A stretch of 64,000 nt of DNA, from IMG/VR virus record IMGVR_UViG_3300042554_001750; one strand, 5' to 3'. The position numbers and the translations under genes are program-made. Positions within the stretch are counted from its first letter, which is position 1, and each line of letters starts with the position of its first letter. Source of the DNA: a virus (Duplodnaviria; Caudoviricetes). A model generated the notes under the pieces. It made no database searches. It was not told the origin of the DNA and saw nothing but the letters and a program-made list of their open reading frames with translations. Below, piece after piece: positions 12,302 to 44,590 of this stretch.

Positions 12302-13000
12302 ATGGGCGTCGGATTTGACGTAATAAGCGATTTGCATTTATCACCAAATGATAGTTTCAATTGGGAAGGTAAAGCAACTAGTTTATATTTGATTGTAGCA
12401 GGAAATGTAAGCTCTGATGTACGAACCATTGGACTTACATTATCCCATCTTTCAAAGTTTTATCAAGGGGTGTTTTATACCCCAGGTGCGCTTGAGTATC
12501 ACGAAGTTTCAGATGTAGATGCTAGAACGGATGAGATATTAAAGATAACGAAAAGAATCGGCAATGTCGCCGTTCTTTACCATCATGTTGTTATAATAGA
12601 CGGCATAGCGGTATTAGGAACAAATGGTTGGTATGGAAATACTAACACTGATGACCCAGTTGCAAACTTAAAAGTTGAATTACTAAGAAATGATGACATT
12701 CATTATCTTAAAAATTCAATAGAAAAATTACAAAAACATTTGGATGTAGCTAAAATTATTGTAGTTACAAACTCAGTCCCTAACACTAATTTATACTTCG
12801 GAGAAATACCCGATTATGTTAGAGGACAATTGCCATTAGATATTGCTCTATATGCGGATACTCAGTCAAAAGTATCTCATTGGGTGTTTGGCACACATGG
12901 AAAAATAGTTGACATTACTGTTAATAACATCAACTATTTGAACAACCCAAGTTATAAAATTAAACCTTACTGGGCTAAAAGACTAGAAATAACTGTTTAG
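12302..13000 (+). CDS. degenerate metallophosphoesterase-fold protein
   Basis: SDLHL kept, but AGNV, PGALE, TNSVP and FGTHG replace canonical motifs. Confidence 0.7.
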   Translation: MGVGFDVISDLHLSPNDSFNWEGKATSLYLIVAGNVSSDVRTIGLTLSHLSKFYQGVFYTPGALEYHEVSDVDARTDEILKITKRIGNVAVLYHHVVIIDGIAVLGTNGWYGNTNTDDPVANLKVELLRNDDIHYLKNSIEKLQKHLDVAKIIVVTNSVPNTNLYFGEIPDYVRGQLPLDIALYADTQSKVSHWVFGTHGKIVDITVNNINYLNNPSYKIKPYWAKRLEITV

Positions 13001-13302
13001 GCTTCTGCTTCAACTTTAATTTGAAGAGGATAACCTTGAGACCTTGCATCTACAGTTACCTCAATGCCTTTTTGCTCTGCAATTTCATAGGGTAAAATAG
13101 CAACAACAGCACTACCTTCTTCATGAATATTTTTAGTTATATTCGTGGCAGTTTCTGTGTTGTAATTAAAATAATCAATTAATGATTTTACTACGAACTC
13201 CATTGTCGTTACATCATCGTTTATGTAAATGATTTTAAACAATGGGGGTTCTTGAAGTGAAAGATTGGGTTTAATCTTAATCTTGGTTTCAGCTTTAGAC
13301 AT
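12997..13302 (-). CDS. clpS: Clp protease adaptor ClpS
   Basis: PPLFKIIYINDDVTTMEFVV, IHEEGSAVV, AEQK, YPLQIKVE. Confidence 0.93.
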   Translation of the reverse strand: MSKAETKIKIKPNLSLQEPPLFKIIYINDDVTTMEFVVKSLIDYFNYNTETATNITKNIHEEGSAVVAILPYEIAEQKGIEVTVDARSQGYPLQIKVEAEA

Positions 13303-13347
13303 ATTGAATCCTTAGTACGGTGCGTATTTCTACGCACCTCTATAATA

Positions 13348-13788
13348 CTATTTATTAAACGAAATAGCAATTTTCTTGGGCTTTTGTTCTTCAGGAACAA
13401 TACGCTCAAGTGAAATTGTAAGAATGCCATCAGCAACAGTAGCACCTGAAACTTCAACATGGTCTGCAAGAGTCCAGGAGCGATTGAAGTTGCGGCTACT
13501 GATACCATGATGTAGGTATTCTACATTTTCTTTTAGTTCAATTGCCTTTTCTCCCTTGACACTAAGTTGGTTCTTTTCAACAGTAATGTCAATGTCTCCT
13601 TCTTTGAATCCTGCTACTGCAAGTTCAATAGAAAACTTATCCTCACTATGTTTCACAACATTGTATGGCGGATAATTTACTTGTTGAGTTGCAGTCTGAC
13701 GCATAAGTTCATCAAACACATTTTCAAATCCGACTGCAAATTTATGGATAGAAGGAATATCCAAGGAACGAAGTGATAGATTTGTCAT
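13348..13788 (-). CDS. ibpA: small heat shock protein (IbpA/Hsp20)
   Basis: NYPPYNVVK, IELAVAGF, YLHHGISSRNF, DGILTISLERIVPEEQKPKKI. Confidence 0.95.
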   Translation of the reverse strand: MTNLSLRSLDIPSIHKFAVGFENVFDELMRQTATQQVNYPPYNVVKHSEDKFSIELAVAGFKEGDIDITVEKNQLSVKGEKAIELKENVEYLHHGISSRNFNRSWTLADHVEVSGATVADGILTISLERIVPEEQKPKKIAISFNK

Positions 13789-13850
13789 ATTATATCTCCT
13801 TTTTTAAGCAAGAATGACATTGTAGACCCGACCATCGGCATCTACATTAC
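13789..13850 (-). promoter_or_regulatory. ROSE-like RNA thermometer in hsp20 5' UTR
   Basis: TCTTGCTT-AAAA-AAGGAGA anti-SD hairpin with bulged G, preceded by hairpin TGTAGA..TCTACA; ATAAATA at 13851-13857. Confidence 0.75.
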
Positions 13851-13893
13851 TATTTATTCTAACAGTAATTCTATATAAAAACTATTTTTTTGG

Positions 13894-14115
13894 TTAAAAT
13901 AACTTTGGGGGAAGAGTTTGGCTTTGGAGATAACGCTGCCAACGTTTTTTAGCTTGATTCTTTGCTAGTTTCTTTTTAATTGTTGGCTTGACATATGACT
14001 GACGGTTTTGTAATTCCTGTAATAATCCATCCTCCGCAATTTTCTTTTTAAATTTGCGAAGTGCTTTGTCCACATTACCGTCATGAACGATAACTTTTTT
14101 ACCTTTTATATTCAT
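13894..14115 (-). CDS. rpsU: 30S ribosomal protein bS21
   Basis: NVDKALRKFKKK..GLLQEL..YVKPT..K; SQTLPPKLF tail resembles betaproteobacterial bS21. Confidence 0.9.
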   Translation of the reverse strand: MNIKGKKVIVHDGNVDKALRKFKKKIAEDGLLQELQNRQSYVKPTIKKKLAKNQAKKRWQRYLQSQTLPPKLF

Positions 14116-15314
14116 ATCAATGCTTTAGGATGAATTACTAATTCCTGATTAATATTTATCTCTTTAATGTTATTTTTTTGGTATCTTTTGATATTATACA
14201 TATGAGGCATTAAAGTTCTTTCTATCTCTGTATGTAACCCGCGGGCCCCAGTTTTCAACTTAATACAATTATCTACTATTTGATCAATAGCTGATTCATC
14301 AAACTGAAGGTCTACTTCATCCAAACTAAAAAGATATTGATATTGACTAATGTAGTTGTTTTTGACATTTAGTAATACTTGCTTTAATTCATCCTTAGAT
14401 AATTCAGTAAGTGTAACGGTAGTAGTAAAACGACCTATAAATTCGGGAATCATTCCAAACTTCGTAAGATCATCTGGGCTTACAGATGATAAATCTTGTT
14501 CTTTGCTTGATTTATTAATCACTGCACTAAAGCCCATTGTGGTGCCTTTAGTGCGGTTCTTTAAGATTTCGCTTAAGCCCACGAATGCGCCACCGGCAAT
14601 GAATAAGATATCTTTGGTGTTTACTTCTATCATTTCACCACCGGGATGTTTACGGCCACCTTGATTGGGGATTCTGCAAACAGTACCTTCTACTAGTTTA
14701 AGTAGAGCCTGCTGAACACCTTCGCCAGATACATCTCTTGTTATACTAGTAGATTCACCTTTACGGGCGATCTTATCAATTTCATCTACGAAAACAATTC
14801 CGCGCTCTGCTTTTTTAACATCGCCATTTGCGGCATTGAGTAGCATGCTAATCATAGATTCTACGTCATCACCAACATAACCTGCTTCAGTTAAGCTTGT
14901 TGCATCTGCTACTACAAAGGGAACATCCAAAAACTTAGCTACACTTTTTGCTAGTAATGTTTTGCCTGAACCAGTGGGCCCGATTAATAACACGTTGCCT
15001 TTGCTTATTGTTAAGTCAGTGGGAGGATAAGTAATCCGTTTATAATGATTAGCAATAGCTACACTTAAAATTGTTTTCGCATCATTTTGACCAATTGCAT
15101 GTTGGTCTAAGTATTCTTTAATAGCTATGGCATCAAATGTAGATTTATCTTTGCTTACATCTTGTACTACTGCACTATCATCGGCTATGAGTTTGTTACA
15201 CAAATCAATGCAGTCATTACAGATTGCAACGCCTTCACTTACTATTAATTTTTTAACAATATCTTTGTGATTACCGCAAAAAGAACAATGGTTCAATGTG
15301 TTTTCAATGGTCAT
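14112..15314 (-). CDS. clpX: ATP-dependent Clp protease ATP-binding subunit ClpX
   Basis: C4 zinc finger CSFC..CNDC, GPTGSGKT, ADATSLTEAGYVGDDVE, VDEIDKI, GGRKHP, MGF loop, GARGL. Confidence 0.97.
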   Translation of the reverse strand: MTIENTLNHCSFCGNHKDIVKKLIVSEGVAICNDCIDLCNKLIADDSAVVQDVSKDKSTFDAIAIKEYLDQHAIGQNDAKTILSVAIANHYKRITYPPTDLTISKGNVLLIGPTGSGKTLLAKSVAKFLDVPFVVADATSLTEAGYVGDDVESMISMLLNAANGDVKKAERGIVFVDEIDKIARKGESTSITRDVSGEGVQQALLKLVEGTVCRIPNQGGRKHPGGEMIEVNTKDILFIAGGAFVGLSEILKNRTKGTTMGFSAVINKSSKEQDLSSVSPDDLTKFGMIPEFIGRFTTTVTLTELSKDELKQVLLNVKNNYISQYQYLFSLDEVDLQFDESAIDQIVDNCIKLKTGARGLHTEIERTLMPHMYNIKRYQKNNIKEININQELVIHPKALI

Positions 15315-41458: not shown

Positions 41459-43336
41459 TTACTTGACTTCTGTAGTTTCTGCGTCTACTACATTTGGTTC
41501 CGTTTTTTGTTTAGCTTGTTCTGCTTCATACTTTTTACTAGTAATGGGACCAATTGCTTGATACAGTTCGGTAACCTTTTTATTGATTTCCTCAGCATCT
41601 TCACCCTTAAGTGCTTGCTCTAAATTGTCAAGTGCTTCCTTTGCTTTATTACTTTCTTCCTCTGTTACCTGATCTTTAAATTCATTGTAATCACTACGGA
41701 AGTTATTTAAAGCACCTTCACCACTGTTCTTTGCTTGAATCAGTTCAAGTTTCTTCTTATCAGCTTCTGCATTTTCTTCAGCTTCACGAACCATCTTATC
41801 AATTTCAGCTTCAGTTAATCCAGAATTAGACTTGATTGTAATCTTGTTTTCTTTACCTGTGCCTTGATCTTTTGCACTAACATGCATGATACCGTTAGCA
41901 TCAATATCAAGTGTTACTTCAATTTGAGGTACTCCACGCTTGGCTGGGGGAATTCCTTCAAGATTAAATTCACCTAACAATTTATTGTGTTGTACAAATT
42001 CTCTTTCACCTTGATAGACTTTGACAGTAACAGCAGGTTGATTATCATCCGCAGTACTAAACACTTGACTATGCTTGGTAGGAATAGTAGTGTTCTTTTT
42101 GATAAGCTTAGTCATGACACCACCCATAGTTTCAATACCGAGACTTAGAGGTGTAACATCAAGCAATAGAACATCCTTACGGTCACCTGCTAAAACACTA
42201 CCTTGAATAGCTGCACCAGCGGCAACTGCTTCATCAGGATTAACATCCTTGCGAGGTGCCTTAGCAAACAATTTTTCAACTTCTTCTTGAACCTTAGGCA
42301 TGCGAGTCATACCGCCAACAAGAATGACTTCATCAATGTCACTTGCTGTTACATTTGCATCCTTCATCGCAATCTTGCATGGTTCAATAGAACGCTTGAT
42401 TAATTCTTCAACCAAACTTTCTAACTTAGCACGGGTGAGCTTGATGTTCATGTGCTTGGGACCACTTGCATCAGCAGTAATGTATGGAAGATTAACATCA
42501 GTTTGGCTACTGCTGGACAATTCAATCTTGGCCTTTTCAGCAGCTTCTTTCAAACGCTGTAGTGCTAATACATCCTTAGTTAGATCAACACCTTGTTCCT
42601 TTTTAAATTCAGAAACAAGATAGTCCATGATGCGTTGGTCAAAGTCTTCACCACCTAAAAATGTATCACCGTTAGTGGACAGAACTTCAATCTGTTTCTC
42701 ACCATCAATGTTTGCAATCTCAATAATAGAAACGTCAAAGGTACCACCGCCCAAGTCATAGACAGCAACCTTACGGTCTTTCTTATCAGCTTTATCTACA
42801 CCATATGCCAGTGCAGCCGCTGTTGGTTCATTGATGATACGCAATACTTCTAGACCAGCAATGCGTCCGGCATCCTTAGTTGCTTGACGCTGGCTGTCGT
42901 TGAAATATGCAGGGACAGTAATAACTGCTTGAGTGACTTCGTGACCGAGATAATCTTCTGCGGTCTTTTTCATCTTGCGCAAAACTTCGGCTGAAATTTG
43001 CGGAGGTGCAATTTCTTTACCTGAAACACGGACCCATGCGTCACCATTAGTTGCCTCATAGATTTCATATGGCATGAGGTCAATATCTTTTTGAACTGCG
43101 TTTTCTTTAAACTTACGACCAATCAAACGCTTGGCTGCATAGATAGTATTTTTGGGATTTGTTACTGCTTGTCGTTTTGCACTTGCACCAACTAAGATTT
43201 CATCGTTAGTGTATGCAATGATTGATGGGGTTGTACGTGCGCCTTCACTGTTTTCAATAACTTTTGTAGAACCGTTTTCTACAACTGCAACGCACGAATT
43301 GGTTGTACCGAGGTCAATACCTATTACTTTGCTCAT
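41459..43336 (-). CDS. dnaK: Hsp70 chaperone DnaK
   Basis: [54 protein letters not shown] linker. Confidence 0.98.
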
Positions 43337-43396
43337 ATTTTATCTCCTTTAAAAAAGCAAGAATATCGTAGGACCTGTAAGGCATCCTACGATATT
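43337..43396 (-). promoter_or_regulatory. ROSE-like RNA thermometer in dnaK 5' UTR
   Basis: 12-bp stem AATATCGTAGGA/TCCTACGATATT, then TCTTGCTTT..AAAGGAGA; TATAAATA immediately upstream. Confidence 0.75.
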
Positions 43397-43414
43397 ATTT
43401 ATACCTAAAAATTA

Positions 43415-44590
43415 TTAGAACTTAGATTCTCTAGTGTGTTTACGATAATCCGTAGACATGCGCAAATATTTCTCACCCTTACCCTGAAGGACATCACAAA
43501 TTCTATCAATAGTACCGTCATTATAGTTACTAATTTTACCCATATTGACATGTGGTTTCTTTAGTAGAATTTCTAACTTGTTTATAGCATCTTCTATTGA
43601 CCATGGAACATAGAGGCGTTCATGATCATTAGCAAAAGTTTCTGGGAAACTGCGATAAGCAGGATACAATACATTACAACCAAGAGTATCGGCCTCAGAT
43701 ACTGTGTTTGATACCCAATCTTGTAAAGCACAATTAAACAAAACCCTACTATCATTAAGAATATTATAGTAAGTATTCTTATCTAGATCCTCATAAATTG
43801 ACAGTTTGTTTTCTTCTTCTAATTTACGGGTGCGTTTCATATAACTATCATTATTGCTACGCAACTTGCCGCCGCTACACAAAACAAATTCAACTTCGTT
43901 AGGATGCCTACGATTATATTCTTCAATTAGATCCATAAAGAAATCGGGCTGCTTTTCCTGATCCCAACGCGCGGCAAATACAACACGCATTCTGCGCTTG
44001 TTGAATGGTTTAATTTTACCTTCAACACGTTCTTCAACTTCTTCTTTACCGAATGCTAGCCCTGAAATATTGTATATAGGACTAGTCCATCCAGCAATAC
44101 GCATATGAGCAACCATTTCTTCGTTTGTTGCGAGGACTCCGTCCACAAACTCATTAACCATTTGTTCGTAGAGGCCCATCCATTTCGCCATACCCCATAC
44201 ATGTACGAAATCGTCAGGATCAATGGACTGAGCAAGACACCTAACATAAATGCGGGGACGTAGATTACTAGGGACTTGATCCAGTATGTAAGGTAAACTT
44301 TCCATACCGGGCTGGAACATGTCTTCAAAGTAGATAACATCTTCATTTGTTACTTTTCCCTCTTTCATCAATTTGACAAGGTTCATCATTTGACTCATGG
44401 AGTAGTAGCTACGACCATGAGCATCCAATACCTGACCAGTAACGATTGCCTGATCACTGGTTAGTGTTTCGCCGGATACAATTTCGTATTTGATTTTTCT
44501 TCGTTTGAAAACACGTTCATTCCAATCAGTTAACTGAAGGGTATAACGCGCTTTATAGGGCTCTAGCCCCATGTAAAATAGTTTTCTCAT
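43415..44590 (-). CDS. GT-B glycosyltransferase
   Basis: VFAARWDQEKQPDFF, LQDWVSNTVSEA..GCNVLYP..SFPE. Confidence 0.8.
   Translation of the reverse strand: MRKLFYMGLEPYKARYTLQLTDWNERVFKRRKIKYEIVSGETLTSDQAIVTGQVLDAHGRSYYSMSQMMNLVKLMKEGKVTNEDVIYFEDMFQPGMESLPYILDQVPSNLRPRIYVRCLAQSIDPDDFVHVWGMAKWMGLYEQMVNEFVDGVLATNEEMVAHMRIAGWTSPIYNISGLAFGKEEVEERVEGKIKPFNKRRMRVVFAARWDQEKQPDFFMDLIEEYNRRHPNEVEFVLCSGGKLRSNNDSYMKRTRKLEEENKLSIYEDLDKNTYYNILNDSRVLFNCALQDWVSNTVSEADTLGCNVLYPAYRSFPETFANDHERLYVPWSIEDAINKLEILLKKPHVNMGKISNYNDGTIDRICDVLQGKGEKYLRMSTDYRKHTRESKF

Follow-up and report, generated by a model that had tools for sequence, protein, structure and literature searches.

We analyzed the leader of a virus-encoded dnaK gene in a 64,000-nucleotide (nt) stretch of DNA, hereafter the window, which is part of a 108-kb IMG/VR virus record (IMGVR_UViG_3300042554_001750; Caudoviricetes) with a CheckV completeness estimate of 31%. 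On the minus strand, a glycosyltransferase-like gene (43415-44590) is followed by dnaK and then by a GMP-reductase/IMPDH-like gene, and the 78-nt gap upstream of dnaK is filled by a leader that consists of a box resembling T4-type late promoters, a hairpin (hairpin I), an anti-Shine-Dalgarno (anti-SD) segment and the Shine-Dalgarno (SD) sequence itself (Table 1). The hsp20 gene of the same phage, at a distance of 29.5 kb, is flanked by the genes for ribosomal protein S21 and ClpS, with clpX past the S21 gene; it is preceded by a leader with the same order of parts. The element is real and forms part of a large phage branch of ROSE-like leaders that appears not to have been described; dnaK and hsp20 are its sole carriers in the 108-kb record.

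The two arms of the inverted repeat that forms hairpin I, AATATCGTAGGA and TCCTACGATATT, enclose TG-CCT-TAC-AGG. In T4 late promoters, transcription starts 6-7 nt past the box. If the same spacing is assumed for the TATAAATA box, a putative late promoter (6 of its 9 copies in the record are found no more than 100 nt 5' of an open reading frame start on the same strand), the dnaK mRNA would begin at hairpin I, and about 6 bp (GUAGGA/UCCUAC) of the 12-bp outer stem would be present in the RNA. The anti-SD UUCUUGCUU opposite AAGGAGA can form 7 pairs in the ROSE register, with G43358 placed between U.G and C-G. The dnaK leader displays three of the features by which ROSE-like elements are defined: it directly precedes the start codon of a heat-shock gene, it contains the U(U/C)GCU motif, and in the ROSE register a G is bulged beside U.G and C-G pairs. 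The dnaK and hsp20 leaders are both more stable than their dinucleotide shuffles (z of -3.3 to -3.7) and have in common GTAG(G)ATGCC..GG(G)TC(C)TAC and ATTCTTGCTT..AAGGAGAT..AATATG.

A phage family of leaders on dnaK and hsp20

Covariance model R2 was derived from 27 leaders that all belong to other phages, with the window sequences excluded and the two hairpins set by hand. With filters off, R2 recovers the hsp20 leader at 67.0 bits (E = 3.6e-15) and the dnaK leader at 44.4 bits (E = 2.8e-9), and the third-ranked match in the window reaches just 15.4 bits. Model R1, run on the whole 108-kb record, matches at the same two sites, and composite patterns (the hairpin core; anti-SD with SD; UYGCU-SD-ATG) co-occur in the record at just two sites.

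Protein-guided searches of IMG/VR, from which 80 hsp20 loci and 80 dnaK loci were used (more than 590 dnaK candidates were found in all), revealed this leader design upstream of dnaK in at least 80 phage contigs and the same leader on dnaK and hsp20 in more than 180 distinct phage sequences. The succession of YUYRCUU, a short A/U loop, GGAG and ATG is present, in this order, in 218 of the 219 dnaK and hsp20 leaders of uncultured phages. In most of these relatives, hsp20 lies directly 3' of dnaK, and each gene has a separate leader. In five near-complete relatives (335-525 kb), R2 detects one to three copies, all of them 5' of dnaK or hsp20; in the 525-kb relative (L268), the third copy is located 5' of a second hsp20 gene, in the same S21-hsp20-clpS setting as in the window. 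The family extends to cultured phages, in which the leader is found 5' of hsp20: Methylophilales phage Melnitz (55.3 bits), Synechococcus phage S-PM2 (37.7), Synechococcus phage S-CRM01 (31.2) and Pelagibacter phage Mosig (29.2), with a weak match in HTVC008M (18.5). A DNA search of the INPHARED phage collection yielded no close relatives beyond dnaK itself. Among the 159 leaders that could be parsed, 115 contain a NATAAATA box 5' of hairpin I, mostly 10-12 nt before the bulged purine, and many of those without the box are hsp20 leaders immediately 3' of dnaK.

Hairpin I is a conserved structure rather than a conserved sequence. RNAalifold reports compensatory changes at 6 of its 8 pairs; in 102 distinct leaders aligned to R2, a fit that favours the modelled structure, both sides change at 7 of 9 pairs, and 95.6% of the cells are paired. 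The covariation score is 0.397, compared to 0.144 in shuffled alignments (none of 500 reaches 0.397) and to at most 0.08 when the partners are slid. The signal is also present in the 48 distinct dnaK leaders taken alone, with 3-5 pair types at five positions. The constant parts are a Y.G or Y-G closing pair, a bulged purine, an invariant C-G pair and a Y-R pair, such that the sequence is kept only as Y-R-C-Y ... R-G-G, next to 88 distinct outer stems. The closing pair is U.G in 117 of the 159 parsed leaders, and the bulge is found on the 5' side only; the wobble pair and the one-sided bulge are strand-specific and therefore point to an RNA structure as opposed to a DNA palindrome. In hairpin II, formed by the anti-SD and the SD, the register C-G, U-A, U.G, bulge, C-G, U-A, U-A is almost invariant, the bulge being G in 143 and A in 38 of the unique leaders. 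In some lineages (L103, L107, L110, L115 and others), a third, nearly invariant hairpin, GGGCAUAGUGCCC, is inserted between hairpin I and the anti-SD; it is found in dnaK and hsp20 leaders, and the lineages that carry it are mostly of the A-bulge type.

The leader had been noticed in an earlier reading of the window alone (the original prediction), and these results bear out much of what was proposed there: all the letters quoted for the two leaders are present on the minus strand, the core said to be shared with the hsp20 leader reflects a common layout that is beyond chance, a scan with a covariance model, built from other phages, finds exactly these two sites in the window, and the two genes are the only carriers in the record. 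The claim of natural covariation within one genome fares less well, because the outer stems of the two leaders differ by one extra G-C pair if the late start holds, which is weak evidence, although the relatives do covary. Copying of the element onto dnaK, as then envisaged, is not an event of the present genome given that dnaK leaders are kept across at least 80 phage contigs.

Table 1. Features of the dnaK and hsp20 loci in the window
Feature	Position	Strand	Remarks
dnaK	41459-43336	minus	625 aa, full-length Hsp70; Pfam HSP70 E 2.9e-261, residues 4-603
Late-promoter-like box TATAAATA (T4-type)	43396-43403	minus	directly 5' of hairpin I; from sequence
Hairpin I of dnaK leader, full inverted repeat	43362-43396	minus	12-bp outer stem; arms 43396-43385 and 43373-43362; RNA folds, alignment to models R1 and R2
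Hairpin I core, likely transcribed, GUAGGA-UG-CCUUACAGG-UCCUAC	43368-43390	minus	1-2 nt bulge at 43383-43384
Anti-SD UUCUUGCUU of dnaK leader	43355-43363	minus	contains ROSE motif UUGCU; bulged G at 43358; U-run after
SD AAGGAGA of dnaK	43343-43349	minus	anti-SD partner in ROSE-type fold (model A)
dnaK ATG	43334-43336	minus	from sequence
Start codon and codons 2-3 of dnaK (AUGAGCAA)	43329-43336	minus	GAGCAA, alternative UUGCUU partner (model B)
hsp20	13348-13788	minus	146 aa, small heat-shock protein; Pfam HSP20 E 2.2e-21
hsp20 leader	13786-13858	minus	same part order as dnaK leader; R2 67.0 bits, ROSE_3 26.6 bits
Box AATAAATA of hsp20 leader	13851-13858	minus	
Hairpin I of hsp20 leader, GUAGA-U-G-CCGA-UGG-UCGG-G-UCUAC	13821-13846	minus	
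GUCAU of hsp20 leader	13814-13818	minus	
Anti-SD UUCUUGCUU of hsp20 leader	13806-13814	minus	
SD AAGGAGA of hsp20	13795-13801	minus	
hsp20 ATG	13786-13788	minus	
Bulged purines, hairpins I/II, dnaK leader	43383/43358	minus	
Bulged purines, hairpins I/II, hsp20 leader	13839/13809	minus	

Comparison with bacterial leaders and dnaK promoters

At the Rfam gathering thresholds, no match was detected in the window. Under a relaxed threshold, the hsp20 leader aligns end to end with ROSE_3 (RF02523; E = 1e-3), the shared core being GAUGCCGA..UCGGGUC together with UUGCU/AGGAG. Related phage loci totalling 68 kb gave 9 Rfam matches with E <= 1, of which 8 are to ROSE_3, at 25.8-33.6 bits, one of these 5' of dnaK. 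The assignment to ROSE-like elements made in the original prediction is thus upheld, by the anti-SD U(U/C)GCU with its U.G, bulged G and C-G, by the 5' hairpin, and by ROSE_3 as the sole recurring Rfam family. For the dnaK leader, the Rfam matches with E <= 10 are freshwater-2 (RF02980; 18.9 bits, E = 0.84; 43334-43406, minus strand) and isrL (E = 1.7), which we treat as chance; the freshwater-2 motif likewise ends in an A-rich SD region, and its match is probably fortuitous.

The closest parallel is the ibpA leader of Pseudomonas (ROSE_3). Both are leaders of approximately 60 nt with two hairpins, located 5' of a small heat-shock gene; in both, the stable, GC-rich hairpin I contains a bulged ..AU-G-CCG / CGG-GU.. 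core (AU-G-CC/GG-GU in the ROSE_3 architecture), and in hairpin II the U(U/C)GCU segment is placed to pair imperfectly with the SD, leaving a G bulged next to U.G. The Pseudomonas leaders are thermometers: their hairpin II, which opens between 25 and 42 C, is sufficient alone, whereas hairpin I is temperature-insensitive, yet its disruption derepresses the gene; these leaders need no partner to function, whether in E. coli or in vitro (Krajewski et al. 2013, PMC3669281). The phage leaders differ in that they are preceded by a late box of the T4 type and not by a sigma-32 promoter, have an A/U-rich hairpin II that lacks the flanking G-C clamps of Pseudomonas (PMC3669281), occur also on dnaK, and allow extra pairings at the start, namely, GUCAU/AUGAC in hsp20 and anti-SD/codons 2-3 in dnaK. 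The geometry of the motif itself, U(U/C)GCU against the SD with a bulged G flanked by U.G and C-G, is that of ROSE-like motifs in general (PMC3669281; crystal structure, PMC11342760), including B. japonicum ROSE1, E. coli ibpA, and the leaders of oppF and other ABC-transporter genes (PMC11342760). Classical ROSE elements are bacterial and consist of 3-4 hairpins, in contrast to the two hairpins of the phage leader. In the literature searched, we came across no account of a ROSE-like leader from a phage or on any dnaK, and RNA control goes unmentioned in a 2025 paper on phage-borne DnaK.

The closest bacterial dnaK genes appear to be controlled differently. R1 has no match at E <= 1 in the 80 bacterial loci whose dnaK is most similar to that of the phage, and the nine upstream regions that were inspected contain sigma-32-like promoters of the CTTGAAA...CCCCAT type, in agreement with the premise of the original prediction that bacterial dnaK is controlled transcriptionally. 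The phage gene therefore seems to have swapped transcriptional heat-shock control for a late box and a leader, and this exchange would be old because it is common to all sampled phage dnaK genes. Like CIRCE/HrcA and sigma-32, the leader would give dnaK a control element of its own, located between promoter and gene; those systems, however, act on transcription via a protein or a sigma factor, whereas control of the phage dnaK appears to have moved into the mRNA. Whole-genome scans with R1 of two Limnohabitans genomes, Polynucleobacter, Pseudomonas citronellolis and a Methylophilaceae metagenome-assembled genome gave no match, a negative that says little given that 150 candidates were scored per genome and the known ibpA leader was missed as well; ROSE_3 on the same five genomes yielded a match in Pseudomonas only.

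The phage DnaK itself is nearest to DnaK of Burkholderiales (Limnohabitans, Rhodoferax, Polynucleobacter; about 72% identity), a sequence affinity that may hint at the phage host or at the gene donor. The genes for ClpX, ribosomal protein S21, Hsp20 and ClpS comprise a cluster of proteostasis and translation genes (12997-15314, minus strand), in which clpX, clpS and the S21 gene have no such leader. A gene for a J-domain (DnaJ-like) protein of 267 aa is located about 1.4 kb past the window end (record positions 99478-100281, minus strand); it lacks a leader of the dnaK/hsp20 type, has an almost leaderless start and is preceded by a sigma-70-like promoter, TTGACA-17-TATAAT. By its sequence, the phage J-protein appears to be under different control from the phage DnaK. 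No grpE or groES (Cpn10) was found in the 108-kb record, which is 31% complete, and a tRNA scan found none.

Predicted folds of the translation start region

For the hsp20 leader, RNAfold with coding nucleotides included predicts a paired SD, and hsp20 is among the most SD-occluded of the 24 GGAG-bearing genes of the phage. As modelled, the GUCAU segment can pair with AUGAC (13784-13788) and would extend the helix over the hsp20 start codon; in the family, all 72 hsp20 leaders with GUCAU 5' of the anti-SD belong to genes that start with AUGAC, and the 17 leaders of genes with a different start all lack it. An additional predicted hairpin, AUUACUGUU-AGAAUA-AAUAGUAAU (13845-13870, minus strand), straddles the AATAAATA box of this leader and could form only in transcripts that read through from the S21 gene.

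The dnaK leader has two competing folds. When it is cut at the AUG, the prediction is a ROSE-type SD hairpin (model A), with an energy of -3.7 to -4.5 kcal/mol at 20 C and -1.3 to -1.8 kcal/mol at 37 C. In the alternative fold (model B; -9.2 kcal/mol at 20 C and -4.6 kcal/mol at 37 C), UUGCUU pairs with GAGCAA and the U-run with UAAAA, which leaves the SD in a 7-nt loop. Between 10 and 45 C, the predicted stability declines from -5.2 to -0.1 kcal/mol for model A and from -12.1 to -2.9 kcal/mol for model B; in the models, every version of the fold buries the start region in weak, heat-labile structure. Codon 2 in 69 distinct dnaK leaders is AGC (45), AGU (10) or UCN (14), and the G-type anti-SD goes with AGC (42) whereas the A-type goes with AGU (7) or UCN (12). 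The way AGC and AGU track the G or A of the motif is suggestive of G-C to A-U covariation in model B, a pattern that is confounded by descent.

Taken together, the homology to the Pseudomonas leaders and the predicted energies suggest that the dnaK leader is probably the phage version of a short, two-hairpin ROSE-like leader that acts in cis, with thermosensing as the best-supported mechanism. In the mechanism that we propose, transcription probably starts just past the late box, so that the mRNA opens with hairpin I, the stable covarying stem with its U.G wobble, bulged purine and C-G pair. A weak, A/U-rich second structure would follow, in which UUCUUGCUU buries the translation start region, either through the SD AAGGAGA, in the ROSE register with the bulged G, or, in dnaK, through GAGCAA, which comprises the G of the AUG and codons 2-3. 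Either fold would have to open before loading of the 30S subunit, and most of its stability is predicted to be lost between about 10 and 45 C. Synthesis of DnaK and Hsp20 would then climb with temperature, with no need for the host sigma-32. Occlusion of the start region in vivo and its response to temperature are what the modelled folds lead us to expect, and the leaders suggest translation as the step at which the phage adjusts its chaperone output.

Several observations weigh against this interpretation. With 12-30 nt of the coding sequence included, RNAfold prefers model B (P = 0.97), and the SD of dnaK is 92-95% unpaired at all temperatures, so that the predicted ground state departs from the classic ROSE mechanism; because of this alternative fold, dnaK, in contrast to hsp20, is not among the most SD-occluded genes of the phage. 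Model B is not a general solution either, given that 14 of the 69 dnaK relatives, those with UCN as codon 2, are unable to form it. The ROSE-register helix is very weak, at about -1.5 kcal/mol at 37 C, in nearest-neighbour energy models, which take no account of the non-canonical contacts in helices of this type. Since the ribosome constrains the SD, no covariation is seen in hairpin II, and the support for its pairing is the conservation of the anti-SD only. Neither leader reaches the ROSE_3 gathering score of 43 bits, which places both outside the family by the Rfam rule, and the dnaK leader has no ROSE match at E <= 10 in Rfam. The genuine ibpA leader of Pseudomonas citronellolis is also sub-threshold, at 29.1 bits, and therefore a low ROSE_3 score is not strong evidence against kinship. 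Finally, the late-type promoter and the lytic type of the phage imply that the control could concern timing or dosage, not heat.

Alternative roles and biological implications

The last point leads to the strongest of the competing explanations, that of a constitutive dosage or stability device, in which hairpin I would shield the 5' end of the late mRNA, and the weak fold at the ribosome-binding site would set a low fixed rate of translation or a delay until ribosomes are abundant. Such a role is consistent with the onset of hairpin I at the predicted 5' end, with the largely free SD predicted for dnaK, and with the suggestion of Krajewski et al. (PMC3669281) that hairpin I may stabilise the ibpA mRNA. 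It also agrees with the late-type leader of clpS (13319-13356, minus strand), in which a AATAAATA box (13349-13356) is followed by an 8-bp hairpin, GGUGCGUA-GAAA-UACGCACC (13319-13338), without an anti-SD, and 5'-terminal hairpins may be common to the late-type mRNAs of this phage. A dosage device, however, leaves unexplained the anti-SD with U.G and bulged purine, which is present in 218 of 219 leaders and on chaperone genes only, and the homologous Pseudomonas leaders are proven thermometers in which hairpin II alone suffices (PMC3669281). We regard this explanation as unlikely.

A further regularity concerns the U.G / bulged-purine / C-G module, which is present in hairpins I and II alike. 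The identity of the bulged purine is linked across the two hairpins: among the 159 parsed leaders, 129 have G in both, 29 have A in both, and a single one combines A and G. On the DnaK tree, the A state arises in at least 3 places, with one reversal, and the switch always affects both hairpins and, wherever both leaders could be parsed, both genes. The independent contrasts number 3-4 and are all concordant, which is too few for significance. These observations could fit a bolder scheme, which we consider distinctly improbable, whereby T4-like phages possess a self-contained post-transcriptional chaperone regulon (dnaK and one or two hsp20 genes) that replaces sigma-32. The module in both hairpins would be recognized by a common trans-acting reader, and the concerted G-to-A switch in both hairpins and both genes would be due to that reader; the leader would be a switch gated by a protein or by the ribosome, instead of or besides a thermometer, and dnaK would toggle between SD-occluding and start-codon-occluding folds.

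Even less probable, in our assessment, is that the leader is simply a binding site for a phage or host protein that reads this module in trans and controls whether the chaperone mRNAs are translated or degraded. The occurrence of the module in both hairpins and the linked purine switch speak for such a site, but the contrasts are few, no candidate protein was identified, hairpin I varies freely outside Y-R-C-Y/R-G-G, and the Pseudomonas relatives work partner-free in E. coli and in vitro (PMC3669281). The original prediction had singled out the GAUGCC/GGUC core as a possible protein-binding site; that core is not invariant, being reduced to Y-R-C-Y ... R-G-G in the family, whereas the linked change of the bulged purines is compatible with the idea.

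Two further explanations are very improbable. Hairpin I together with UUCUUGCUUUUUU could be an intrinsic terminator of the upstream glycosyltransferase-like gene, with only an incidental likeness to the hsp20 leader; the U-rich run after the hairpin would suit this role, but it is a feature of this one leader. A scan of 43250-43550 for terminators and sigma-70 promoters found nothing, the same element stands 5' of hsp20 without a U-run, and the relatives have A-rich spacers 3' of hairpin I and a late-promoter box at a fixed spacing before it. The family alignment, in which a stem with a U-run is not conserved, thus contradicts a terminator, and the R2 scores make a chance likeness untenable. 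CIRCE elements lie between the promoter and the chaperone gene, as do the repeats of dnaK and hsp20, and palindromes can also 'covary', but a DNA operator for a dimeric, HrcA-like repressor is hardly credible because the U.G closing pair and the one-sided bulge would be mismatches in the palindrome and on the opposite strand, the stem sequence is free while the structure is kept, and the dnaK leader contains no CIRCE consensus.

Few RNA thermometers are known in phages. A 2024 count lists three, namely, lambda cIII, the fourU element of SPbeta blyA and a sigma-70 fourU of gut Caudoviricetes, none of which is of the ROSE type or located on a chaperone gene (PMC11182007). The leaders described here share with these the general design of a cis-acting structure at the ribosome-binding site of a phage gene that is, or in the present case would be, temperature-responsive; those are single cases that involve other motifs (alternative structures, fourU) and other genes, whereas the present leader represents a large family on chaperone genes. 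The pairing alternative with codons 2-3 and the linked identity of the bulges are new details for ROSE-type leaders. The leader is also present in cultured, tractable phage-host pairs, those of Melnitz, S-PM2 and S-CRM01, and the relatives provide a natural series of hairpin II variants, which may be tuned to the cool temperatures of lakes and oceans. If the phage leaders work as they do in Pseudomonas, a virus that has redirected the host RNA polymerase would still be able to scale its chaperones to temperature, with a portable RNA module in place of sigma-32.

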